A stretch of DNA of 58,224 nucleotides from Candidatus Saccharimonadia bacterium (GCA_039738635.1 JBCLLN010000005.1:1-58224), one strand, 5' to 3'. Shown: positions 4,613 through 55,686, counted from the first letter of the stretch. A program made the numbers and translations. The notes: generated from the sequence alone by a model not told the origin.

Positions 4613-4677
4613 TATTGCCTGCTACTAGACTCGCAAAGTAATACAATCATTTTATCCTTTTTGCATATTATACAATA

Positions 4678-4698
4678 TTCCAGGGAGACACCCTGGAA
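4678..4698. repeat. 8-bp-stem hairpin repeat ttccaggg-agaca-ccctggaa, copy 1
   Basis: Same 21-mer with one wobble-compatible change at 6137-6157. Confidence 0.8.
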
Positions 4699-4722: not shown

Positions 4723-4797
4723 AACCAGAACTTGCGAACAGATAACATTTCATATGACACGAATCATCAGATGTAAAGGTGAGACCTTATATTCCTT
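4723..4797 (+). mobile_element. solo right-end remnant of the Y1-transposase element
   Basis: Matches the last ~24 nt of the transposase CDS plus the REP-like end (compare 343-415 and 2267-2338). No ORF is attached. Confidence 0.8.
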
Positions 4798-4964: not shown

Positions 4965-5675
4965 ATGGATCGTAAAATTGATAGACCCCTAAAGCTAGTA
5001 TTGGTACGCCACGCCGAATCCACCCGCAATGAGGCCAAGAAAGATGCAAGCTTCTTTGCAGATGAGTTTTCGCGTAATAAGGTTAAGGGTATAGCCGACG
5101 AAGCTGTGCCTCTAACTGAGGCAGGCAAAGCGCAGGCTAGGATTACTGGTCAGGTTCTCAAGCAAAGCTTTGGGCAATTTGACTATATATATCATTCGGG
5201 CTATCAAAGGACCGTTCAAACCGTGGACGAGATGCTTAAAAACTACACCGAAAGCGAGCAAGCCAGAATTAATGTTCGGATGAGTACATTTATTAGAGAG
5301 CGAGATGCTGGCTATGCCTACGATATGACTGAGGCTGAAGCTAGGCAAAACTTCCCATATATGGAAGAGTACTGGAAGACTTTTGGTGGTTTCTTTGCAG
5401 TTCCCCCTGGTGGCGAGAGTATTGCCCAAGTTTGCCAGAGAGTTTATTCATTCCTAGACACAATTTTTAGAGACAGGGCCGGCCAAACGGTGCTAGTTGT
5501 AACTCACGCTGGAGCCATAAGAAGCTTTAGGTTTATTCTAGAAAAATGGAACTACAATCAAGCCCTTAAATTTACTACTAATCAAAGCCCCTTAAATTGT
5601 GGCGTAACTGTCTATGATTATAATAAAGCCCAGCATCATCTTGAGCTAAAAACTTACAATACTATTTATTATTAA
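4965..5675 (+). CDS. histidine phosphatase family protein (phosphoglycerate-mutase-like)
   Basis: N-terminal LVLVRHAES catalytic RHxE motif and a later VVTHAG motif. Confidence 0.8.
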   Translation: MDRKIDRPLKLVLVRHAESTRNEAKKDASFFADEFSRNKVKGIADEAVPLTEAGKAQARITGQVLKQSFGQFDYIYHSGYQRTVQTVDEMLKNYTESEQARINVRMSTFIRERDAGYAYDMTEAEARQNFPYMEEYWKTFGGFFAVPPGGESIAQVCQRVYSFLDTIFRDRAGQTVLVVTHAGAIRSFRFILEKWNYNQALKFTTNQSPLNCGVTVYDYNKAQHHLELKTYNTIYY

Positions 5676-5705
5676 TATTATATTATTTTATTTATTATTA
5701 TTTAT

Positions 5706-5732
5706 GTTACTTTTAAATACCCTAAAAGTAAC
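5706..5732. repeat. hairpin gttactttt-N9-aaaagtaac
   Basis: The same stem sequence (tactttt/aaaagta) recurs at 6083-6104, 15910-15931 and loosely at 15965-16012. Confidence 0.7.
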
Positions 5733-5811
5733 TTTAAAGGGTTTCCGACTGCTAAACAATACCTTCACAACCAAATAATATTCTTCTATCTGTTTTTTCA
5801 GAACAATTCCC

Positions 5812-6105
5812 TAAGGAATTGGTCCAGCCGAGCTGGACTTGGCTGAAAATAACCAGAAGCTAAAAGTATATTTGATTTTTCTGATTGCTTAGATAGTCGT
5901 AGGGCTACACTTAATATCCCACCCCGACATCGAACATCAGAAAATGAGTAGATGTTTTAAGCTCATTACTTAAGAAGCTGTATGAGCTTGATGCGATAGT
6001 AATAAAGCGAGTTCTTCATAAATAAGGAAGTAAAATATCTATGAATGCTTATAGATGTGAGCCTTAGGAGGGCAGTTTTATATTACTTTTGCTGTCAAAA
6101 GTAAT
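5812..6105. repeat. conserved ~300-nt ORF-free element, copy 1 (candidate structured RNA or non-autonomous mobile element)
   Basis: Aligns with 15622-15931. Perfectly conserved blocks of 39, 29, 33, 25 and 36 nt are separated by variable blocks. No ORF is conserved between copies. Confidence 0.7.
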
Positions 6106-6136
6106 AGCTAAATAATAAAATAATAATTATATTTTA

Positions 6137-6157
6137 TTCTAGGGAGACACCCTGGAA
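6137..6157. repeat. hairpin repeat ttctaggg-agaca-ccctggaa, copy 2
   Basis: Matches 4678-4698; lies immediately 3' of the glycosylase stop codon. Confidence 0.8.
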
Positions 6158-6159
6158 TA

Positions 6160-6795
6160 CTAGTTATTATCTAGAGATTGCCAGATGTACCAGCAGCTCA
6201 CCGATTCATAGGGATGCCATTTGTTTTCTTGTGCCAATTTTTGGGTGTCTTGTGGCGAGGGGAGAGCTTTTAGACCATAAAGTTTTTGTATGCCGTTTTT
6301 TATGCCCAAATCACCATGGGCAAGTACGTCTAACCGCCCCATAGCAAACATCAAAAACATGTGGGCTGTCCATTCGCCTATGCCCTTAACTGCTGTTAAC
6401 TCTGCAATAATTTCATCATTACTTAACGTGTTAAGTATATCTAGCTTAAGACTACCATTCTGTATGTGGCTGGCAAGATCACGCACGTATCTGGCTTTGG
6501 CATTACTGAGGCCAGCTGTTCTGAGCTCTTCTACCGATTTTTCTAAAATTTGTTTTGGCGTGGGAAAATCTGAACCAAACAAATCACAAAATTTACCACG
6601 AATACTACGTGCGGATTTTACGCTGAGCTGTTGGCTAATAATGCTTTCTACCAACTCTTGGAAATAGTTTTGGTGTGGCACGATTGTACATGCCGGGCTA
6701 TTAGCAATAACTTTTGCAAGCACGACATCATGCTTGCTCAGATGCTTGGAGGCCAACTGCAAATTGGTTTTTGATGCAATTAACACAGGTATCAA
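6160..6795 (-). CDS. DNA-3-methyladenine glycosylase II-like (HhH-GPD family)
   Basis: HhH motif LTAVKGIGEWTAHMFLMF followed by a conserved Asp region (HGDLGIKNG). Confidence 0.8.
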   Translation of the reverse strand: MIPVLIASKTNLQLASKHLSKHDVVLAKVIANSPACTIVPHQNYFQELVESIISQQLSVKSARSIRGKFCDLFGSDFPTPKQILEKSVEELRTAGLSNAKARYVRDLASHIQNGSLKLDILNTLSNDEIIAELTAVKGIGEWTAHMFLMFAMGRLDVLAHGDLGIKNGIQKLYGLKALPSPQDTQKLAQENKWHPYESVSCWYIWQSLDNN

Positions 6796-6797
6796 TA

Positions 6798-7061
6798 CTA
6801 TTTATTATTAGCCTTTGGTTTGTTAGTTTTAGCCCCCCTGATCTTATCTAGGGTTTTTTGTTTTACGGTATGATAGTGGTCCTTGGCTTTATTATGTATT
6901 TTTTGAGCCCAAACATATTCAGTGGCTAGTATTGCCAGCCCCATTATAATAAATACCAATCCGGGCCCTGGGGCAACAAGCATTATGATTCCACCAATTA
7001 GTACGACGAAGCCAGCTATGGTGATTATTATTTTTTTCGCACTTCGCTTGAAAGTTTCCAT
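6798..7061 (-). CDS. small PGPGW-motif membrane protein
   Basis: VAPGPGLVFIIMGLAILATEY with two TM segments. Start placed at METFKRS because the longer ORF runs through a terminator and -10 box. Confidence 0.6.
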   Translation of the reverse strand: METFKRSAKKIIITIAGFVVLIGGIIMLVAPGPGLVFIIMGLAILATEYVWAQKIHNKAKDHYHTVKQKTLDKIRGAKTNKPKANNK

Positions 7062-9400: not shown

Positions 9401-9445
9401 TGTATCTGCGGATATTTCTCCCTAAAGATAAAACAGTTTTCACTC

Positions 9446-9486
9446 GGCCAGATTCACCCTAGGAATGGGCGATTTTAAAGTAAGCC
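9446..9486. repeat. short MITE/REP-like element upstream of paralog 1
   Basis: ggccagattcaccctaggaatgggcgattttaaagtaagcc resembles 11608-11654 and, inverted, 17555-17587 and the end of the 48590 MITE. Confidence 0.6.
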
Positions 9487-9564
9487 ATAGTATAATAACG
9501 ATATATCAAGCATAATAACTATTATTAAAGACTGTAATATACTAACAAACCAAGGTTAGAACAA

Positions 9565-11583
9565 ATGCCAGAGCAGATTCCAGATCAAAACCCACAAGGC
9601 CCCTCCAGTCCTAGTTCTAGCCCTAGCCCTAGCAAAGAGGAGCTGGCTGGTGCTAGATTATTGCATACTAAATACTCAGATCTTCAAAAATCTCCTGTCG
9701 TAGAACACTCCGTCGAACAGCGGCGACACAATAAAGAAAGAATACCCAATGAACCTGCTCCAAGGATTGAAGCCTGGCTGCAAGACTTGGATCGTATCCA
9801 CACCGGCCGTGGAGCCAGCCCTGAACGCCAAGCTGCTCAGCCCGAAGTACTGGAACGCATCAAAGAAAGTTACCATCGCAACTACATCACAGGCACCGAT
9901 AACGATTCGGTGATGCGCAAACTCCGCCACGATGCCCAAATAGCCCAAAACCAAGGTCACGGTCTGGCCGCAGATATTATGCAACGCGTCAATGGCCAAG
10001 TTATTGAACAAACCCGCCAAACAATACACCAAGACCAAGCCAACAGCCTCGACAAATGGTTAGATTATCTCTCCAGCGACGATGCCAGCTATCCCATGTG
10101 GTTTAAATACTATGTATTTCGTAATATCACTAAGCTGGCTGAATTTGATAAAGAAAAAGGCGAATTCCCCAGACGATCTAAAAGCACCACGGCCCCATTC
10201 CCGGACATCAATCGTGAAGCCTTGGCATATATGGAAGACAGCCTAGCCAAACACTATGGCTTACAGCAGCTTGACCCCAACCACCCCGAAGCCGCAATAG
10301 ATCCAGCAATCAAAGAACTATTAGATAAAGACTCTAACTTTGCTAGCCTCTACAAGCGCACTATAGCTTATGCCGCCCCTAAAACTGCCGAAAACCTAGC
10401 TGTCACCGACGGACAATGGGTTAAATTCGACCAAACCAATGATACCGAGCAAGCAATGAAGCTCGCCCATAGCCTGCATGGCTATGGCACCGGCTGGTGT
10501 ACAGCTGGCGAGGGCATGGCCGCCAGTCAGCTAGCTGCCGGAGACTTCTACGTCTATTACACTAAAAGTGAAGACGGGCAGTACAGTGTACCGAGGGTGG
10601 CGATACGAATGAACGGTAGAAGTATTGGTGAAGTAAGGGGCATTGAAGCTGACCAAAACATGGAAGGCCCGCTCCTACCAATTGCGGAGGCCAAGATGAA
10701 CGAGGTAGACCCCCAGGGCGCCGAGGCTTACAAGAAGAAGTCGGCCGACATGCAAAAGCTGACAGCTATCTATACCCGCCACACTACTAGCGCAGAACTT
10801 ACTAATCAAGATCTCCGATTCCTCTACGAACTAGATGGCAGAATAGAAGGCTTTGGCTACGAGCGAGACCCTAGAATAGAGCAGATCCTTGCTGATAGAA
10901 ATGATAAGGCTGATTTATCTCTGGCGCTGGGCATAGATGAAGCTAAAATAAGTATAACCATAGCAGAGGCCTTAAGTGGTGACATACTCTACCATTATGG
11001 TGACCTCGACCTCCACATCCTCACCAGCGCCCATGGCCCAACCCTCTCCACCATCGGTGGCGACCTCACCCTCCCCAGCCTCACCAGCGCCGAGGGCCTA
11101 ATAACCCTACCCACCACCATCGGTGGCTCCCTCAGCCTCAATAACCTCACCAGCGCCCATGGCCTAACCCTCCCCACCACCATCGGTGGCGACCTCAACC
11201 TCAGCAGCCTCACCAGCGCCAAGGACCTAATCCTCCCCACCACCATCGGTGGCTACCTCGACCTCAATAGCCTCACCAGCGCCAAGGACCTAATCCTCCC
11301 CACCACCATCGGTGGCGGCCTCGGCCTCAGTAGCCTCCCCAGCGCCAAGGACCTAATCCTCCCCACCACCATCAGTGGCGACCTCAACCTCGATAGCCTC
11401 CCCAGCGCCAAGGACCTAATCCTCCCCACCACCATCGGTGGCGGCCTCGTCCTCCACAGCCTCACCAGCGCCAAGGACCTCACCCTACCCACCACCATCG
11501 GTGGCTACCTCGACCTCGGTAGCCTCCCCAGCGCCGAAAGAGATGCCCTCTGCGCTAAATACCCTGATATATATATCATCTAG
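9565..11583 (+). CDS. large repeat protein, paralog 1: conserved N/central domain + nine 20-aa LRR-like repeats
   Basis: 672 aa, collinear with 17705-19654. Central motif HGYGTGWCTAGEGMAASQL..GDFYVYY..PRVAIRM.GRSIGEVRGIEADQN; C-terminal LTSA(K/E)(D/G)L(I/T)LPTTIGG.L.L repeats. No signal peptide seen. Confidence 0.85.
   Translation: MPEQIPDQNPQGPSSPSSSPSPSKEELAGARLLHTKYSDLQKSPVVEHSVEQRRHNKERIPNEPAPRIEAWLQDLDRIHTGRGASPERQAAQPEVLERIKESYHRNYITGTDNDSVMRKLRHDAQIAQNQGHGLAADIMQRVNGQVIEQTRQTIHQDQANSLDKWLDYLSSDDASYPMWFKYYVFRNITKLAEFDKEKGEFPRRSKSTTAPFPDINREALAYMEDSLAKHYGLQQLDPNHPEAAIDPAIKELLDKDSNFASLYKRTIAYAAPKTAENLAVTDGQWVKFDQTNDTEQAMKLAHSLHGYGTGWCTAGEGMAASQLAAGDFYVYYTKSEDGQYSVPRVAIRMNGRSIGEVRGIEADQNMEGPLLPIAEAKMNEVDPQGAEAYKKKSADMQKLTAIYTRHTTSAELTNQDLRFLYELDGRIEGFGYERDPRIEQILADRNDKADLSLALGIDEAKISITIAEALSGDILYHYGDLDLHILTSAHGPTLSTIGGDLTLPSLTSAEGLITLPTTIGGSLSLNNLTSAHGLTLPTTIGGDLNLSSLTSAKDLILPTTIGGYLDLNSLTSAKDLILPTTIGGGLGLSSLPSAKDLILPTTISGDLNLDSLPSAKDLILPTTIGGGLVLHSLTSAKDLTLPTTIGGYLDLGSLPSAERDALCAKYPDIYII
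10999..11538 (+). repeat. 9 x 60-bp in-frame tandem repeat array (C-rich strand)
   Basis: Period 60 nt, visible as repeated ctcaccagcgccaaggacctaatcctccccaccaccatcggtgg units. Confidence 0.9.
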
Positions 11584-11607
11584 TTAACAAAATATCTTTA
11601 GGCTAAT

Positions 11608-11654
11608 TTACTGGATTTACCCTAGGAATGAGTGATTTTGCATAAGTCCAGTTA
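11608..11654. repeat. short MITE/REP-like hairpin element downstream of paralog 1
   Basis: ttactggattta...taagtccagtta arms are complementary at 10/12 positions. The core matches the TIR region of the 48590 MITE. Confidence 0.6.
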
Positions 11655-14178: not shown

Positions 14179-14505
14179 ATGAAGGATTTAGCAAGTAGAG
14201 TTTGTTCTGTATGCGAAGGGGGAACACCACCATTGACGCATTCCCAGATTGTCAAGTATAACGACCAGGTCAGTGAGCAGTGGGAAGTACTTAAAGACTA
14301 TAGTATCAAAAGAAAGTTTAGATTTAAGGACTTTAAGGAGGCGATGGTGTTTGTTAATAAGGTTGCCGATATCGCTAACCATGAAGATCACCACCCAGAT
14401 ATTTATATTTTTTATAATATCGTTGATATTGAGCTATACACGCATGCCGTAAAAGGCCTTAGTGAGAATGATTTTATCATGGCCGCCAAGATAGATAAGC
14501 TGTGA
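14179..14505 (+). CDS. 4a-hydroxytetrahydrobiopterin (pterin-4-alpha-carbinolamine) dehydratase
   Basis: HEDHHPDI motif, ~100-aa size, SD aggag. Confidence 0.85.
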   Translation: MKDLASRVCSVCEGGTPPLTHSQIVKYNDQVSEQWEVLKDYSIKRKFRFKDFKEAMVFVNKVADIANHEDHHPDIYIFYNIVDIELYTHAVKGLSENDFIMAAKIDKL

Positions 14506-14594
14506 TCATTTTCTAGACTATTGCTAATCAGCCAGCTAAGATAGCTTCTTTGCTTCCTATTCCCTCAATCCAGTCCTCTTCCAGCTATTGTTAT

Positions 14595-14759
14595 ATGAAT
14601 AATGACTTACCAGAAGTGGTAAACATATTAAAAGTATACTCAAATACTCTACGTAACTGGGACAAGGACGGTTCACTCAAAGCTATACGCATAGGTGAAC
14701 GCAATATACGCTGGTGGAAGAAATCGGACATTATAAAGCTCTTAGAGCTAGGCGAGTAA
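14595..14759 (+). CDS. small helix-turn-helix protein (excisionase/MerR-like HTH)
   Basis: VNILKVYSNTLRNWDKDGSLKAIRIGERNIRWWKKSDI resembles the HTH_17/excisionase family. Start chosen at the internal ATG. Confidence 0.45.
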   Translation: MNNDLPEVVNILKVYSNTLRNWDKDGSLKAIRIGERNIRWWKKSDIIKLLELGE

Positions 14760-14773
14760 TTATTACTAAAATA

Positions 14774-14803
14774 AAAACCACCCTTTTTATGGGTGGTTTT
14801 TAT
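14774..14803. terminator. bidirectional intrinsic terminator
   Basis: aaaaaccaccc tttttat gggtggttttt lies between convergent genes. Confidence 0.75.
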
Positions 14804-14823
14804 TGGAAATACCTTGAGTACTA

Positions 14824-15468
14824 TTATTTAGTAACTTCAAGAATCTTGAATGTAGCAGTCTTCAACGCCTCTAACTTGCCTGACTCAACATATTTAAAAG
14901 CTTTTTCTGACACGCTTTGTCCAGGTTTTAAGTCTGAGACATACACTGTATCATCAGCTATACGGGTACCATCAGCACCTACCGCTTCAATCTTTACGGT
15001 GTAGCTAGCCTTTTCTGATGACTTATTCTTGATAGTTACTGGTAATTCAGTAGTGTCGTCGTAATTAAAACCCGCTTCCGCACCAGGATTAAATACGAAC
15101 TCACCAAGCGTAACATCTACGCTAGTCTTTAACAGCTTATCTGTATTGGTGCCGTCAAAGTCATTGACCGTCTCTGTTACTGAGTTGCTAACCTTATCCG
15201 CAACTTTACCGTAAAATGATTGAGTTGCTAGGACTACGACGCCAGTAAGAATGGAGAGGATTATGGTTGCAATAGCCAAACCCTGACCGACTTTTTTGCC
15301 TTTTTTTATCGCTATGAAACCGATAATACCAAAGATCAACGAAATGATAGCAAAGAAAAAGGACACATTATTCAAAATTGGCACCCATGATCCTAGTATG
15401 GCTAGTATCGCTATTATGAAGCCCGCTATCGCAAGTCCCGATGTACGTTCTGTTTTGTCTTTACTCAC
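14824..15468 (-). CDS. membrane protein: N-terminal TM bundle + C-terminal extracellular beta-rich domain
   Basis: Three hydrophobic segments (DUF4190-like) followed by a soluble domain. Confidence 0.6.
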   Translation of the reverse strand: MSKDKTERTSGLAIAGFIIAILAILGSWVPILNNVSFFFAIISLIFGIIGFIAIKKGKKVGQGLAIATIILSILTGVVVLATQSFYGKVADKVSNSVTETVNDFDGTNTDKLLKTSVDVTLGEFVFNPGAEAGFNYDDTTELPVTIKNKSSEKASYTVKIEAVGADGTRIADDTVYVSDLKPGQSVSEKAFKYVESGKLEALKTATFKILEVTK

Positions 15469-15621
15469 AACAATCTCCTTTTTAGTTTATTCGTATTTAT
15501 ATACGATTGCTCATTTCTATAGCTTAGGTGTAAAAACAAACCTCCGTTGAATTGAAAAATATATACGAGGTTATTATAACATGACAATCCGTTAAATAAT
15601 ATCTTTTTTATTTTATTACTT

Positions 15622-15931
15622 TAAGGAATCGGTCCAGCCGAGCTGGACTTGGCTGAAAATAACCAGAAGTTAAGAACCTATTTGATCTTTAAAGATTGTT
15701 TAGATAGTCGGAGAGCTTCAATCACAGCTTGGGCCCTAGAAAATATCCCCCCGACATCGAACATCAGAAAATGAGTAGCTGCTTTAAGCTCCTTATTATG
15801 AAGTTGTCTAAAGCTTGATGCGATAGCAATAAAGCGAGTTCTTCATAAATAAGGAAGTAATACAGCTATGAATGCTTATAGATGTGAGCCAAGTCGGGCA
15901 GTTTTATATTACTTTTGCTGTCAAAAGTAAT
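15622..15931. repeat. conserved ~300-nt ORF-free element, copy 2
   Basis: Aligns with 5812-6105. Carries a ~15-nt larger variable block containing extra palindromes (agct, gggccc) and ends in the same acttttgctgtcaaaagt hairpin. Confidence 0.7.
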
Positions 15932-16150
15932 TAAATAATAATAAATAAATTAATTAACTCAGTGTTACTTTTAAATAATTTTAATTGTTTTATTACATTT
16001 GGCATCAAAAGTGGATATTAAACATAATAATTATATTATTTAGCTATTGCATATAAAACATAAGAATTTTGTCACAATAATATATGCAGGCTCGTTACAA
16101 AGGGTGTATAATGAAGATACACCGCTTTTATTGAAAGGAGGTGAAAGGAT

Positions 16151-17543: not shown

Positions 17544-17612
17544 GTCCAGTTAGGGCTTACTTTAAAATTGCTCATTGCTATAAGGGGCAAAAGAGCTTTA
17601 ATGTAAGTCCGG
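17541..17612. repeat. MITE/REP-like elements upstream of paralog 2
   Basis: taagtccagtta, then ggcttactttaaaattgctcattgctataagggg (inverted relative to 9446-9486), then gtaagtccgg. Confidence 0.6.
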
Positions 17613-17704
17613 TATAATAACGGCGCATATAGTATAATAACAATACATATAAGCATAATAATGATTGTTAAAGACTGTAATATAGCTAACCAAGGTTAAA
17701 ACAA

Positions 17705-19654
17705 ATGCCAGAGCAGTTTCCAGACCAAAACCCCCAAGGCCCCTCCAGTCCTAGTTCTAACAAAGAGGAGCTGGCTGGTGCTAGATTACTGCATTCTAAA
17801 TACTCAGATCTTCAAAAATCTCCTGTCGTAGAACGCTCAGTCGAACAGCGACGACACAATAAAGAAAGTATACCCAACGAGCCATCCCCCAGAATTGAAG
17901 CCTGGCTGCAAGACCTAGAGCGTACCCACACCGGCCTTGGAGCCAGCCCCGAACGCCAAGAGGCTCAGCCCCAAGTGCTAGAACGCATCAAGGAAAGTTA
18001 CCATCGCACCTACATCACCGGCACCGATGATGGTTCGGTGGGGCGCAAACTCCACCATGAGGCCCAAATAGCCCAAAATCAAGGTCACGGTCTGGCCGAA
18101 GATATTATGCAACGCGTTAATCATGAAGTTATTGAACAAACCCGCCAAACCATTCGCCAAGACCAAGAACAAAGCCTTGATAGGTGGATAGATTATCTCA
18201 CTAGCGACGATGCCAGCTATCCTATGTGGTTTAAGTACTATCTATTTCGTAACATCACTAAGCTGGCCCAGTTCGACAAAGAAGCAGGTGAATTCCCCAA
18301 ACGATCCAAAAGCACCACGGCACCATTCCCAGACATTAATCGTGAAGCCCTAGCATATATGGAAGACAGCCTAGCCAAACACTATGGCTTAAAGCAGCTT
18401 GACCCCCACCACCCCGAAGCTGAAATAGATCCAGCAATGAAAGAACTATTGGATAAAGACTCTAACTTTGCTAGCCTTTATAAACGCACCATAGATTATG
18501 CCGCCCCTAAAACTGCTGAAAACCTAGCTGTGACAGACGGAGAGTGGGTTAAATTCGACCAAACTGATGATCCCGAGCAAGCCAAAGAGCTGGCCCATAG
18601 TCTGCACGGTTATGGAACCGGCTGGTGCACAGCTGGGGAGGGCATGGCAGCCAGTCAGTTATCGGCTGGAGACTTCTATGTCTATTATAGTAAAAGTGAA
18701 GATGGGAAGTACACCGTACCTAGGGTGGCGATACGAATGAAAGGCAGAAGCATTGGTGAAGTAAGGGGCATTGAAGCTGACCAAAACATGGAAGGCCCAC
18801 TGGTACCGATTGCTGAGGCCAAGATGAACGAGGTAGACCCCCAGGGTGCCGAGCCTTACAAGAAGAAGTCGGCCGACATGCAAAAGCTGACAGCTATCTA
18901 TACCCGCCACACTACTAGTGTAGAACTTACCAATCAAGATCTGAGATTCCTCTACGAACTAGACGGTACAATACAGGGCTTTGGATATCAGCGAGACCCT
19001 AGAATAGAGCAGATCCTTGCTGATAGAAATAAGAAAGCTGATTTATCTCTGGTGCTGGGCATAGATGAAGCTAAAATAAGTATAACCGCAGCAGAGGCCT
19101 TAAGTGGTGACATACTCTACCATCATGGCAACCTCAGACTCTACGGCCTCACTAGCACCGAGGGCCTAACTCTCCCCACCACTATCGGTGGCGACCTCAC
19201 CCTCCCCAGCCTCACCAGCGCCGAGGGCCTAACCCTACCTAACTCCATCGGTGGTGGCCTCGACCTCAGGAGCCTCACCAGCGCCGAGGGCCTAACCCTA
19301 CCTACTGCCATTGGTGGCTCCCTCAGCCTCAATAACCTCACCAGCGCCGAGGGCCTAACTCCCCCCACCACCATCAATGGCTACCTCTGGCTCAGCAGTC
19401 TCACCAACGCCGAGGGCCTAACTCTCCCCACCACCATCGGTGACTACCTCGTCCTCAGTAGCCTCACCAGCGCCGAGGGCCTAACCCTACCTAACTCCAT
19501 CGGTGGTGGCCTCTTCCTCGACGGCCTCATCAGCGCCGAGGGCCTAACTCTCCCCACCACCATTGGTGGTGACCTCGGCCTCGGCAGCCTCACTAGCGTC
19601 GACAAACAAGCCCTCAGAGACAAATACCCACAGTTAGCTAGTAAAATAATTTAA
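17705..19654 (+). CDS. large repeat protein, paralog 2
   Basis: 649 aa, collinear with paralog 1 including the GYGTGWCTAGEG core. Eight LTSAEGLTLPTTIGG.L.L repeats. Confidence 0.85.
   Translation: MPEQFPDQNPQGPSSPSSNKEELAGARLLHSKYSDLQKSPVVERSVEQRRHNKESIPNEPSPRIEAWLQDLERTHTGLGASPERQEAQPQVLERIKESYHRTYITGTDDGSVGRKLHHEAQIAQNQGHGLAEDIMQRVNHEVIEQTRQTIRQDQEQSLDRWIDYLTSDDASYPMWFKYYLFRNITKLAQFDKEAGEFPKRSKSTTAPFPDINREALAYMEDSLAKHYGLKQLDPHHPEAEIDPAMKELLDKDSNFASLYKRTIDYAAPKTAENLAVTDGEWVKFDQTDDPEQAKELAHSLHGYGTGWCTAGEGMAASQLSAGDFYVYYSKSEDGKYTVPRVAIRMKGRSIGEVRGIEADQNMEGPLVPIAEAKMNEVDPQGAEPYKKKSADMQKLTAIYTRHTTSVELTNQDLRFLYELDGTIQGFGYQRDPRIEQILADRNKKADLSLVLGIDEAKISITAAEALSGDILYHHGNLRLYGLTSTEGLTLPTTIGGDLTLPSLTSAEGLTLPNSIGGGLDLRSLTSAEGLTLPTAIGGSLSLNNLTSAEGLTPPTTINGYLWLSSLTNAEGLTLPTTIGDYLVLSSLTSAEGLTLPNSIGGGLFLDGLISAEGLTLPTTIGGDLGLGSLTSVDKQALRDKYPQLASKII
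19127..19603 (+). repeat. ~8 x 60-bp in-frame tandem repeat array
   Basis: Repeated ctcaccagcgccgagggcctaac(c/t)ct(a/c)cc...atcggtgg units. Confidence 0.9.
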
Positions 19655-19821
19655 GAGCCCAACCCAACAGCTAGTAATCCTAAAGTAAGTGTCATTACTA
19701 ACCCTAAAAGCCCCATATATAAGAGAGTTTATATATTTTGTAAATTTGCCATCTGATAAAGGCCTGGCCTTTTCCAGATGGGAGTTTTACAGATTTGTGA
19801 CTTCATAGCTTAGCTCATCCG

Positions 19822-19929
19822 TTATTTCTTGTGTTTTTCATAGTTAGCGATAAATTCCTGGTAAGCTTCTCTGCTGGAATAGTTGATCAAGTAGTTTTTC
19901 TGTCTGAAGCCACTCCGGCTCGCTGGCAT
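19822..19929 (-). pseudogene. possible C-terminal remnant of a diverged Y1/RAYT transposase
   Basis: The 35-aa ORF ..FRQKNYLINYSSREAYQEFIANYEK parallels ..LKPQKIISLFTSPKEYMKFIEEYDD of the 1670 protein. An in-frame stop lies upstream. Confidence 0.3.
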
Positions 19930-20021
19930 TTCTATAAAGCCCTAGCTTAAGTAACTTGAATCATTATCTCAAAAAGCATATAATTGTAAGTATTATTCTA
20001 ATTAAAATAAACGGAGGAAGT

Positions 20022-46405: not shown

Positions 46406-46846
<441 letters not shown>

Positions 46847-48802: not shown

Positions 48803-49138
48803 CTATGCAGGTTTTTTCTCTAGCCGACCAATTCGTAGCTCATGGTCTTTTAGTTGGGTATCGTTAGTCTCGTTGCTAGTATCCATTGCACCAGCTACAT
48901 ATTTTGATAGGTCATCTATTTTCGTACTCATCTTATTATCTAAGCTCTTGATGTCAGAACGAACATCAGAGATTTCAACACGAACATCAGAGATTTCAAC
49001 ACGAATACCAGAGATATCATCACGCATACCAGAGATATCGTGATGAATACCAGAGATATCATCACGAATTTCAGTGGTTTGTTGTGAAACTGTTGCGGAG
49101 ATAAATTGTTTTAAGTCTTGGATGGTGTCGTCATTCAT
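48803..49138 (-). CDS. 111-aa coiled-coil protein with 7-aa tandem repeats (DISG(I/M)R/H.)
   Basis: IRDDISGIHHDISGMRDDISGIRVEISDVRVEISDVRSDIKS. Start set at MNDDTIQ, 6 nt after TGtTATAAT. Confidence 0.55.
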   Translation of the reverse strand: MNDDTIQDLKQFISATVSQQTTEIRDDISGIHHDISGMRDDISGIRVEISDVRVEISDVRSDIKSLDNKMSTKIDDLSKYVAGAMDTSNETNDTQLKDHELRIGRLEKKPA

Positions 49139-49144
49139 ATGGCT

Positions 49145-49153
49145 ATTATAACA
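49145..49153 (-). promoter_or_regulatory. extended -10 (TGtTATAAT), leaderless-type
   Basis: Minus strand reads ttgttataat agccat ATG(49138). Confidence 0.45.
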
Positions 49154-49317
49154 AAAAGTAGAATACATTACGATTTTTTGGGTGCGGGATAGCAGACGCA
49201 TTACAAACAGCAGCAATAGTTGATATACATGACTATAAGCTAAAGCATTTGGTTGAAGTATTCGGTTTGTCTGGTGAATTAATATAAACCATATGCTGAG
49301 TTAAGGCATTTTTTTGG

Positions 49318-51350: not shown

Positions 51351-51435
51351 GGGCGGGTGGTGGAACTGGTATACACGACGGACTTAAAATCCGTTGCCTT
51401 TCGGCTTGCGGGTTCAAGTCCCGCCCCGCCCACCA
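51351..51435 (+). tRNA. tRNA-Leu(UAA), long variable arm
   Basis: Acceptor gggcggg/cccgccc, anticodon loop ctTAAaa, T-arm gcggg ttcaagt cccgc, CCA. Confidence 0.85.
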
Positions 51436-51460
51436 AACAAATAGTCCTGCTAAGGCAGGG

Positions 51461-51601
51461 CAGATTATAAATCCAACGCATGATACACTAAAGAAAATAA
51501 CGAAAGCCCTTGGGGTTGGTTTAGATGAATTAACCGGCTATCAATTTCAGCTAAAATTTCAATACCTGTCTGCAGGCAGGCAGGAAAGTTTAACTAATTA
51601 A
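51461..51601 (+). pseudogene. 5'-truncated XRE-family HTH gene fragment
   Basis: The frame reads ..INPTHDTLKKITKALGVGLDELTGYQF.., the third helix and tail of an XRE HTH. There is no start codon, and the frame runs into the tRNA-Leu terminator. Confidence 0.5.
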
Positions 51602-55642: not shown

Positions 55643-55686
55643 TATTTTACGAGCACCTTACGGAAAAGGCGTCAGCCGTTATCCCG
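55643..55686 (+). repeat. isolated copy of the distal 44 nt of the tRNA-Val-associated 166-bp unit
   Basis: tattttacgagcaccttacggaaaaggcgtcagccgttatccc matches 46593-46635 and 46759-46801 with one mismatch. Confidence 0.85.

Follow-up and report, generated by a model that had tools for sequence, protein, structure and literature searches.

The 58,224-nucleotide (nt) stretch of Candidatus Saccharimonadia bacterium DNA analyzed here (GCA_039738635.1, JBCLLN010000005.1:1-58224; referred to as the window) contains two diverged copies of a sequence element that we read as a ~430-nt, non-coding, low-copy interspersed repeat of a narrow Saccharimonadia group, most likely a small mobile DNA element; we assign this reading a probability of roughly 0.6. 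Among related genomes the element behaves as a modular hairpin repeat, copies of which have been gained, lost, flipped, permuted and recombined. A first-pass annotation, made from the sequence alone, had proposed the two copies as a candidate novel structured RNA of ~300 nt. Part of that proposal holds, namely that the element is non-coding, lacks a match in Rfam, is structured and contains compensated base pairs. What fails is the idea of an RNA gene with two copies in fixed positions, because inversion, permutation, truncation and presence or absence of the element are found at given loci among close relatives. The DNA that was read comprises the 58-kb window (two units) and about 45 kb of a sister genome (at least four units).

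Two homologous copies in the window

Positions 5812-6105 and 15622-15931 of the window, originally described as aligning end to end, are indeed homologous over their whole length: a global alignment has 311 columns, 250 of them identical, with 43 mismatches and 18 gap columns. The runs of perfect identity measure 39, 36, 33, 30 and 25 nt (the 30-nt run had been counted as 29 nt, while the other four lengths were as reported), and the reported length change of ~15 nt is a single difference of 16 nt, to which two 1-nt indels must be added. The differences between the copies are clustered. In a permutation test the summed length of the five longest runs was reached in 0 of 20,000 shuffles, and the sum of squared run lengths gave p=0.0002, so that divergence spread evenly along the copies does not explain the block pattern. 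The 39-mer of block 1 occurs exactly twice in the window, where 0 occurrences are expected, and neither nhmmer nor sensitive blastn found a third full copy there. The G+C content of the element is about 35-36%. Several other features of the first-pass annotation proved accurate, as the hairpins that it quoted are present in the copies, copy 1 lies between convergent genes (His_Phos on the plus strand, HhH-GPD on the minus strand) and copy 2 lies between divergent ones (DUF4190 on the minus strand, a 56-aa gene on the plus strand).

The limits of 5812-6105 were drawn too narrowly. Homology to copies elsewhere extends copy 1 over positions 5702-6130, which gives a full unit of ~430 nt, and copy 2 occupies about 15585-15945, with extra hairpin remnants that reach to about 16023.

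Architecture of the unit

An alignment of all copies defines the order of the unit as left hairpin, module A, variable junction, module B and right hairpin. In the window, its parts are as follows.

5675-5705, plus strand: AT-rich linker; with the left hairpin it makes up the left arm of an imperfect, ~60-nt terminal inverted repeat (TIR) of copy 1
5706-5732, plus strand: left hairpin, GTTACTTTTA-aataccc-TAAAAGTAAC, conserved in copies L001, L003, L005 and L010
5733-5899, plus strand: module A, a long imperfect hairpin that ends at GATAGTCG and is 85-91% identical to copies from other lineages
5900-5921, plus strand: variable A/B junction, 17-45 nt among copies, at which permuted and truncated copies end
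5922-6081, plus strand: module B type I, consisting of a long imperfect hairpin (~125 nt) and a short 3' hairpin, with pairing that is kept in the divergent type II
6082-6105, plus strand: right hairpin, ATTACTTTTG-ctgt-CAAAAGTAAT, with compensated variants among copies
6106-6133, plus strand: AT-rich linker, the right arm of the imperfect TIR of copy 1, defined by local alignment
15585-15945, plus strand: element copy 2, the module A of which is without the left hairpin and the greater part of the leader
15961-16023, plus strand: remnants of a following unit: part of a left hairpin (GTTACTTTTAAATA...) plus a degenerate hairpin of the right type, ACATTTGgcatCAAAAGT, with GGATATTAA after it

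The two short hairpins at the ends share nearly the same stem (TTACTTTT...AAAAGTAA). The left hairpin has the general form GTTACTTTTA-n7-TAAAAGTAAC, and its stem resembles that of the right hairpin, which has the consensus (ATTA/TCCA)CTTTTG-n4-CAAAAG(TAAT/TGGA), often followed by TATTAA. The outer part of the right stem reads either ATTA../..TAAT or TCCA../..TGGA, a compensated exchange for which wobble intermediates are also seen, and its loop is either CTGT or the reverse complement ACAG; GGATATTAA often stands after the end of the unit. Module A (~170 nt) opens with a conserved leader, which is followed by a small hairpin and block 1; a segment complementary to this leader comes next, and the module closes with GATAGTCGG. 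The leader, at 5733-5811, falls outside the limits first drawn for the element and pairs with the segment located 3' of block 1, while block 1 itself (5821-5859) and the small covarying hairpin CAATTCC/GGAATTG both lie inside module A. Module B (~160 nt) starts with CCCGACATC and exists as type I and type II versions that are barely alignable in sequence. In copy 2, the A/B junction is 16 nt longer and is followed by a type I module B and a right hairpin at 15908-15931. Alternative module versions recur in different subsets of copies, e.g. the extra 16-nt segment of copy 2 is also present in L002 and L003. The block pattern is thus partly a subfamily mosaic, because the variable regions are largely alternative versions common to different subsets of copies.

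When the left end of copy 1 was aligned to the reverse complement of its right end, a local alignment score of 27 was obtained, as compared to 13.2+-2.2 for shuffled sequences (maximum 20), and the inverted similarity spans ~60 nt. The same similarity is at chance level in the L001, L003 and L010 units.

Several smaller features of individual copies were also recorded. A run of 13 C residues (G on the other strand) is located in the variable A/B junction of the sister-genome copy L002, at 5325-5340 of that contig, and this homopolymer tract could vary in length. One L005 element copy contains two insertions of a 20-nt GC-rich palindrome, CCTGCCT.CC.GCAGGCAGG (171-193 and 294-313), one in the left hairpin and one in the loop of the block 1 hairpin; this palindrome is a second, very small repeat that sits inside the larger one. 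In the sister genome, complete units are preceded by arrays of short variant hairpins (TTGCTTTTGCAAGCAA, ATTACTGATGTCAGTAAT, ATTACTTTTGCCATCAAAAGTGG; L001 2540-2680, L003 1060-1150), which look as if end hairpins accumulate independently.

Distribution, inversion and permutation in related genomes

A 21-mer scan of genomes identified the element on three contigs of Candidatus Saccharimonadia isolate SLM_LV1_0208-P14 (JBCLLP01), and a metagenome scan with a different block identified two short contigs that carry it. JBCLLP01 is a sister genome, with syntenic genes that are 93-98% identical to those of the window at the DNA level. The genes around the copies are those of a bacterium with a small genome, and exact-protein look-ups of window genes gave no match. 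It contains at least four units on its three contigs, two of which lie within 1.4 kb of a contig end; as copies are found near contig ends, the element breaks short-read assemblies. Further copies are in L004, L005, L010 and L011, and three metagenome lineages carry the element, at loci unrelated to those of the window.

Comparison of these copies reveals rearrangements of several kinds. At the sister locus orthologous to copy 1, both flanks have the same orientation as in the window, whereas the intervening element is reverse-complemented, with most of module A missing. Circular permutation, with module B placed before module A, is seen in L005 and L010. The exact end of module A in L004, L005 and L010 is GATAGTCG(G/A)GG, beside the stop codon of a gene. 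Truncated units break exactly at module borders, and L001 carries two tandem units, the second of which is missing most of module A. Presence and absence are clearest in the spacer between the KH gene and trmD, which measures 468 nt in L010, where it contains the element alone, as compared to 102 nt in L012 and 42 nt in L020. In 196 kb of sequence from relatives at about 70-86% protein identity no copy is present, and at each orthologous locus examined there the element is likewise missing.

The contexts of the element are equally varied, as copies are located at VanW/MnmE, rplS/dnaE, KH/trmD, a deacetylase-like gene, His_Phos/HhH-GPD and DUF4190/ExoIII. No neighbouring gene is conserved across the copies; the first-pass annotation had raised co-occurrence with a particular protein gene as a check, and no consistent neighbour emerged.

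Coding capacity and known RNA families

A census of open reading frames (ORFs) of at least 12 codons in all six frames of eight copies revealed no conserved reading frame on either strand, in agreement with the earlier remark that the small ORFs are unconserved, and peptide similarity among copies is confined to places where the DNA is identical. The best candidate, MAENNQKL..., which begins at a TTG in block 1, has lost its start in L010, runs for four codons before a stop in L003 and carries a frameshift in L004. The element is therefore non-coding. A type I toxin-antitoxin locus was considered and rejected, as there is no conserved small hydrophobic ORF.

These data bear on the view that the two copies are a decayed, duplicated protein gene or a plain segmental duplication, which we consider very improbable and already contradicted. 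The point in its favor is a pair of paralogous genes (9565-11583 and 17705-19654), about 88% identical in DNA, that lie a few kb downstream of each copy and have diverged to a similar degree. However, the distances from element to paralogue differ (3.5 kb as compared to 1.8 kb) and the intervening genes are unrelated; no reading frame is common to the copies on either strand, their differences are clustered and not spread, and their stems are compensated. Duplication together with the neighbouring paralogues was rejected outright, as the sister genome lacks both paralogues yet carries the element elsewhere, at four places.

The element also matched no family in a search of Rfam 15. At gathering scores the only matches in the window are seven tRNAs, with no match to the element. 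At E<=10, both copies and a complete unit from another genome gave scattered hits of 10-21 bits against thresholds of 40-440, and none of these is common to the copies. ARAGORN detected no transfer-messenger RNA at the element copies, and scans of the copies for promoter and terminator consensus sequences gave results at chance level. No blastn match to the element was found in phage or plasmid DNA, and four pattern scans of viral contigs returned either nothing or seed-only chance hits. An integron cassette with an attC recombination site was rejected by inspection, as the hairpins of the element read GTTAC...GTAAC or ATTAC...GTAAT, unlike the RYYYAAC...GTTRRRY cores of the 57-141-nt imperfect palindromes of attC; no integrase was found in the window.

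Folding, covariation and the case for an RNA gene

The element is strongly structured. Pieces with the originally proposed limits have folding z-scores of -3.2 to -4.0 on either strand, whereas the full copy 1 unit reaches -5.3 as plus-strand RNA, -4.7 as minus-strand RNA and -6.8 when its plus strand is folded as single-stranded DNA (ssDNA). The L010 unit has a z-score of -7.8. RNAalifold applied to six copies predicts 78 pairs at -50.0 kcal/mol on the plus strand, and 69 pairs at -42.4 kcal/mol on the minus strand. In the plus-strand structure 19 pairs show double-sided changes that preserve pairing, as compared to 6.9+-1.9 in shuffled alignments (0 of 500 reach 19) and 1-4 compensated pairs in controls in which the pairing partners were slid; this count comes from six sequences, among which the divergent copy L001a contributes most of the double changes, and from a structure derived from the same alignment. 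All alignment-wide support for pairing resides in the long hairpin of module B and in the right hairpin. Specifically, helices 4, 5, 7 and 8 of module B contain 16 pairs with compensatory change, and the right hairpin constitutes helix 9. The 5' helices never vary, and in module A only the small hairpin covaries (three pairs), being read as CAATTCC/GGAATTG, CAAAACT/GGTTTTG or GACCC/GGGTT. Block 1 has two alternative pairings, each of which is broken in some lineage.

With regard to strand, the core segment folds better on the plus strand in six of six copies, and the consensus pairs include 40 G-U cells as compared to 3 A-C cells. The strand call is nonetheless weak, because the full unit folds equally well on both strands.

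One explanation of these features is that the copies are a family of structured non-coding RNA (ncRNA) genes, which we regard as a tentative, minority possibility. Each gene would produce a plus-strand RNA of ~300-430 nt with two hairpin domains, in which the invariant unpaired blocks (block 1 and CGAACAUCAGAAAAUGAGUAG) would be sites for binding or base-pairing; the RNA may ride on mobile DNA, and its presence in multiple copies would be like that of multicopy bacterial small RNAs. Such a gene would account for the lack of a conserved ORF, the strong structure, the compensated pairs in module B, the right hairpin and the small hairpin of module A, the G-U excess with better plus-strand folding of the core, the placement of invariant blocks between covarying stems, and a conservation of the element that exceeds the genome background. 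In addition, several copies have in their leader a weak sigma-70-like sequence, TAAACA-17-TAAnnT, which was picked out by eye and might be a promoter. However, the putative -10 motif lies within the 5' arm of hairpin A, so that an RNA started there could not form that hairpin, and the promoter and terminator scans were at chance. Nor is there a single shared transcript architecture, as the leader or block 1 is missing from copy 2 and from the sister copies. The invariance of the 5' helices, the broken pairings of block 1 and the equal folding of the two strands of the full unit also argue against an RNA gene, as do the reversed orientation at an orthologous locus, the permutation, truncation and presence or absence among close relatives, and the neutral rate at which the orthologous L004 and L010 copies diverge (see below). 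Moreover, in REPINs (doublets of repetitive extragenic palindromic sequences, or REPs), which are mobile DNA, the pairing of hairpins is likewise kept by compensatory changes (PMC3116915). Compensatory change alone is therefore no proof of RNA function, and because its hairpins covary, an element such as this one could pass for a novel RNA gene in covariation screens.

A combination of the two views is conceivable, although we judge it unlikely. The element could be a structured, self-maintaining ncRNA module of ~430 nt that spreads horizontally, with two long hairpin domains and invariant single-stranded blocks; it would travel between Saccharimonadia lineages as its own DNA, and its function would depend on the fold. 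Such a module might guide, or be a scaffold for, a nuclease or transposase whose gene lies elsewhere, or it would protect or control neighbouring transcripts, and it would then represent a new class of mobile ncRNA in bacteria of the Candidate Phyla Radiation (CPR).

Rates of change

Genes shared by the window and L010 are 62-75% identical in protein and 71-77% identical in DNA. Module A, in contrast, is 85-91% identical across these and other lineages, which is about the same as between copies within one genome, and the element is thus better conserved between lineages than their protein genes. In L004 and L010, which carry module A at the same locus, the two copies are 89.9% identical, as compared to 86-92% at the 4-fold degenerate sites of the adjacent genes, and the sister copy at the same locus as copy 1 is about equally close to copy 1 (91.3% identical) and to copy 2 (90.4%); these comparisons rest on 119-190 nt and are indicative, not proof. 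As the orthologous L004 and L010 copies differ at the rate of 4-fold sites and are not near-identical, purifying selection in place is unlikely. The simplest reading of these sequence comparisons is that the element copies share a more recent ancestor than their hosts, by way of horizontal spread, exchange between copies, or both, and that once in place they would drift roughly neutrally while the surrounding region turns over quickly.

Segments that contain the copies

Both window copies lie in segments that related genomes lack.

5657-5674, plus strand: left copy of an 18-bp perfect direct repeat, CAATACTATTTATTATTA, at the 3' end of the His_Phos gene, bounding a 1.14-kb insert
6135-6159, no strand assigned: short hairpin that contains G+C, TATTCTAGGGAGACACCCTGGAATA, located between the stop codon of HhH-GPD and the element, with a related copy at 4667-4698
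6160-6795, minus strand: HhH-GPD DNA glycosylase gene, the cargo of the insert, found at other loci in more distant relatives
6793-6810, plus strand: right copy of the 18-bp direct repeat, an exact match to the left copy
14505-16060, no strand assigned: 1.55-kb segment absent from the sister genome, consisting of the DUF4190 gene, copy 2 and hairpin remnants

The 1.14-kb insert thus contains copy 1, the short hairpin and the HhH-GPD gene. The 18-bp repeat has exactly two copies in the window, a result obtained in 0 of 100 shuffles, while L019 and L023 carry one copy at an uninterrupted His_Phos/PGPGW junction. In relatives at 76-81% identity the PGPGW gene starts about 20 nt after His_Phos. 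From about position 6131 rightwards, the window is nearly identical to the sister genome. The 4-fold sites of HhH-GPD are 97.5% identical between the two (6131-6810 against L009), as compared to 81-88% for the neighbouring genes, which suggests a recent transfer or conversion of a small segment. In the 1.55-kb segment the DUF4190 gene occupies 14824-15468 on the minus strand, and no flanking direct repeat of the segment (14505-16060) was found.

The short hairpin TTC(C/T)AGGGAGACACCCTGGAA occurs twice in the window, at 4667-4698, beside the remnant of another repeat that accompanies a transposase gene (see below), and at 6126-6157, beside copy 1.

These segments raise the question of whether the element could act in cis as the DNA module of a mobile element, integrative or replicative, that brings cargo genes with it. 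In that case it would be an attachment or recombination region, a transfer origin, or the single-strand origin of a small plasmid- or phage-like replicon, and the chromosomal copies would be scars of repeated integration. Both window copies do lie in segments that relatives lack, each together with a gene (HhH-GPD or DUF4190), and an 18-bp direct repeat located at a gene's 3' end is what integrase attachment cores typically look like. The 97.5% identity of HhH-GPD at 4-fold sites, against 81-88% for its neighbours, also suggests recent transfer, and circular permutation is expected from a circular intermediate that is opened at different points. Long hairpins that fold strongly as ssDNA are also reminiscent of single-strand origins. 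Nevertheless, we consider this explanation improbable. At KH-trmD the element is present alone, without cargo, and no integrase, relaxase or Rep gene was found in the window or beside any copy; the phage, plasmid and viral-contig collections gave no match. Furthermore, the element lies outside the 97%-identical HhH-GPD block, as it is inverted and only 91% or 64% identical.

How the element may spread

On the reading that we prefer, that of a small mobile DNA element, the unit would spread as DNA within genomes and between related lineages, e.g. by natural transformation, and its copies would exchange segments by recombination. The palindromic end hairpins would be the sites of cutting, joining or inversion. 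As both are palindromes with the same stem, each end hairpin is also an inverted repeat of the other, and recombination or template switching between them could invert the unit and flip the 4-nt loop, which fits the occurrence of both CTGT and ACAG. Like hairpins near both ends, the lack of a regular TIR or target duplication, and folding as ssDNA recall elements that are moved by HUH/Y1 enzymes (IS200/IS605, RAYT, the last being the REP-associated tyrosine transposases). The enzyme involved would most likely be a recognizer of ssDNA hairpins, such as an HUH/Y1-type transposase acting in trans, or else a site-specific recombinase. Pairing in the hairpins may be kept up because it is required by the moving machinery or for the element to remain stable. 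Effects on the host would probably be secondary; the likeliest is that, at the 3' ends of convergent genes, transcripts form very stable stem-loops that act as terminators or RNA stabilizers.

A RAYT-like gene of the Y1/HUH class is located at 1670-2290, 3.5 kb from the element. Its product contains the motifs NHFHML and RYIHLNP, and scores 29 bits against Pfam Y1_Tnp (cutoff 23) and 36 bits against NCBIfam REP_Tyr_transpos (cutoff 80). The gene is flanked by its own inverted repeat of ~40-75 nt with the hairpin AAGGT-GAG-ACCTT (1615-1654, inverted, and 2268-2342). The element profile has no match at this gene, and the element does not flank it. A link between the two is therefore doubtful, as the gene has different flanking repeats and is absent from element-bearing loci.

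Several results weigh against a mobile DNA element. No cognate transposase or recombinase has been linked to it; integrase, relaxase and Rep genes are missing from Pfam scans of the sizeable ORFs of the window and from the surroundings of the copies, and neither the RAYT-like gene nor its AAGGT-GAG-ACCTT repeat was found at the sister element loci. No target-site duplication was found at the KH-trmD insertion or at the copy 2 indel, where the empty-site comparators are relatives at 76-86% identity and short duplications could be blurred. TIRs are significant in copy 1 only, and the 18-bp direct repeat brackets the element plus a gene, and not the element alone. The apparent copy number is low and copies within a genome are only 84-94% identical, so there has been no recent burst. 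Finally, the better folding of the plus-strand core in all six copies, the invariance of block 1 across lineages and the invariance of 25 nt of CCCGACATCGAACATCAGAAAATGA in five type I copies are to be counted here, as such invariance goes beyond what a signal for mobility alone would require and would be in keeping with a functional RNA.

Other features of the window

The 3' part of the RAYT-like gene has a second, 100%-identical copy at 1-366, and a third remnant of its 3' end, with the repeat, is located at 4723-4797. Between the first two lies an ORF (592-1464, 290 aa) of 56-61% GC in a genome of ~40% GC, which has no match in Pfam or NCBIfam and is provided with a consensus promoter, TTGACA-17-TATAAT, upstream (~494-522) and a GC-rich terminator downstream (~1479-1512). 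This ORF looks like foreign cargo.

The paralogues at 9565-11583 and 17705-19654 (regions 9404-11636 and 17544-19933) encode proteins of 650-670 aa with C-terminal arrays of 21-aa (63-nt) repeats that resemble leucine-rich repeats (LRRs). Their boundaries are marked by short repeats (CCCTAGGAATGGGCGATTTT... and AAGTCCAGTTAGG), and one of these repeats is inverted in the sister genome, an arrangement that points to a distinct cassette or inversion system for surface proteins.

The 3' end of tRNA-Val, with a downstream hairpin, is repeated three times at a spacing of 166 nt. The repeat regions are 46406-46846 and 51419-51467, related sequence follows tRNA-Leu, and a 43-nt piece is present at 55643-55685; these repeats could be scars of repeated integration at tRNA genes. 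Lastly, five to six copies of a 21-nt tandem repeat (48950-49075) lie inside an ORF (48803-49216) for a coiled-coil-like protein.

Significance and comparison with known systems

The genomes of Saccharimonadia and other CPR bacteria are very small and densely packed, with few repeats or mobile elements on record. The element marks places of gene gain, loss and inversion, including the HhH-GPD glycosylase, the DUF4190 membrane protein and the nearby LRR-like surface proteins, and for this reason it provides a handle on DNA exchange and rearrangement in reduced epibiont genomes. If it has a functional transcript, this would be among the larger structured RNAs specific to CPR bacteria.

The element shares features with several described families. 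Like the REP/REPIN and RAYT system, it is a non-coding intergenic repeat with a long-hairpin unit, compensated pairing (PMC3116915) and a population of copies that varies, and a RAYT-like gene is present in the same window. REPINs, however, are about 100 nt long, are built from two inverted REPs, and usually occur in tens to hundreds of copies, with copies flanking their RAYT gene. The element measures ~430 nt, four times the size of a REPIN, and contains two different long hairpins, which are compensated, and two short ones. Its hairpin arms do not consist of two recognizable short REP copies, its copy number looks low, and the RAYT-like gene of the window is flanked by an unrelated repeat.

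[quoted passage not shown] Similar to the MITEs Correia/NEMIS, ERIC and QMITE2, the element is shorter than 500 bp, non-coding, AT-rich and intergenic, is found in either orientation, forms stable stem-loops and shows insertion polymorphism. Canonical MITEs have defined TIRs, short target-site duplications and an identifiable parent insertion sequence (IS), whereas the element has a TIR in one copy only, no regular duplication, no parent IS, and units that are circularly permuted. Pfam scans of the sizeable ORFs of the window revealed no autonomous IS with its ends, the only candidate being the Y1 gene with its different repeats.

With the palindrome-associated transposable elements (PATEs) of the IS200/IS605 group it has in common that hairpins of like sequence lie close to its two ends and point the same way, that regular TIRs and target duplications are missing, and that folding as ssDNA seems to matter. 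It differs in that no tnpA or tnpB gene with matching ends was found, no conserved cleavage tetranucleotide or fixed target could be established, and its ends vary by lineage, being bounded by a hairpin in some and by the A/B junction in others. The large ncRNAs HEARO/omega-RNA, OLE, ROOL and GOLLD are also several hundred nt long, non-coding and strongly structured, and some of them are associated with mobile DNA; the element, in contrast, has no Rfam match even at E<=10 and no adjacent IscB or TnpB.

The bacterial interspersed mosaic elements (BIMEs) of enterobacteria and the BOX elements of Streptococcus pneumoniae are likewise mosaics of a few module types that can be missing, repeated or replaced by alternatives. 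Their modules are 40-60 nt long, whereas those of the element are long hairpins of 170-215 nt; there is no sequence relationship, and the BOX-type motif families in Rfam gave no hit. No prior description of such a repeat family was found in the literature. Because it lacks what defines MITEs, REPINs and BIME/BOX elements, the repeat stands outside the named families; it fits none of those described exactly and is a new family of mosaic hairpin interspersed repeats.

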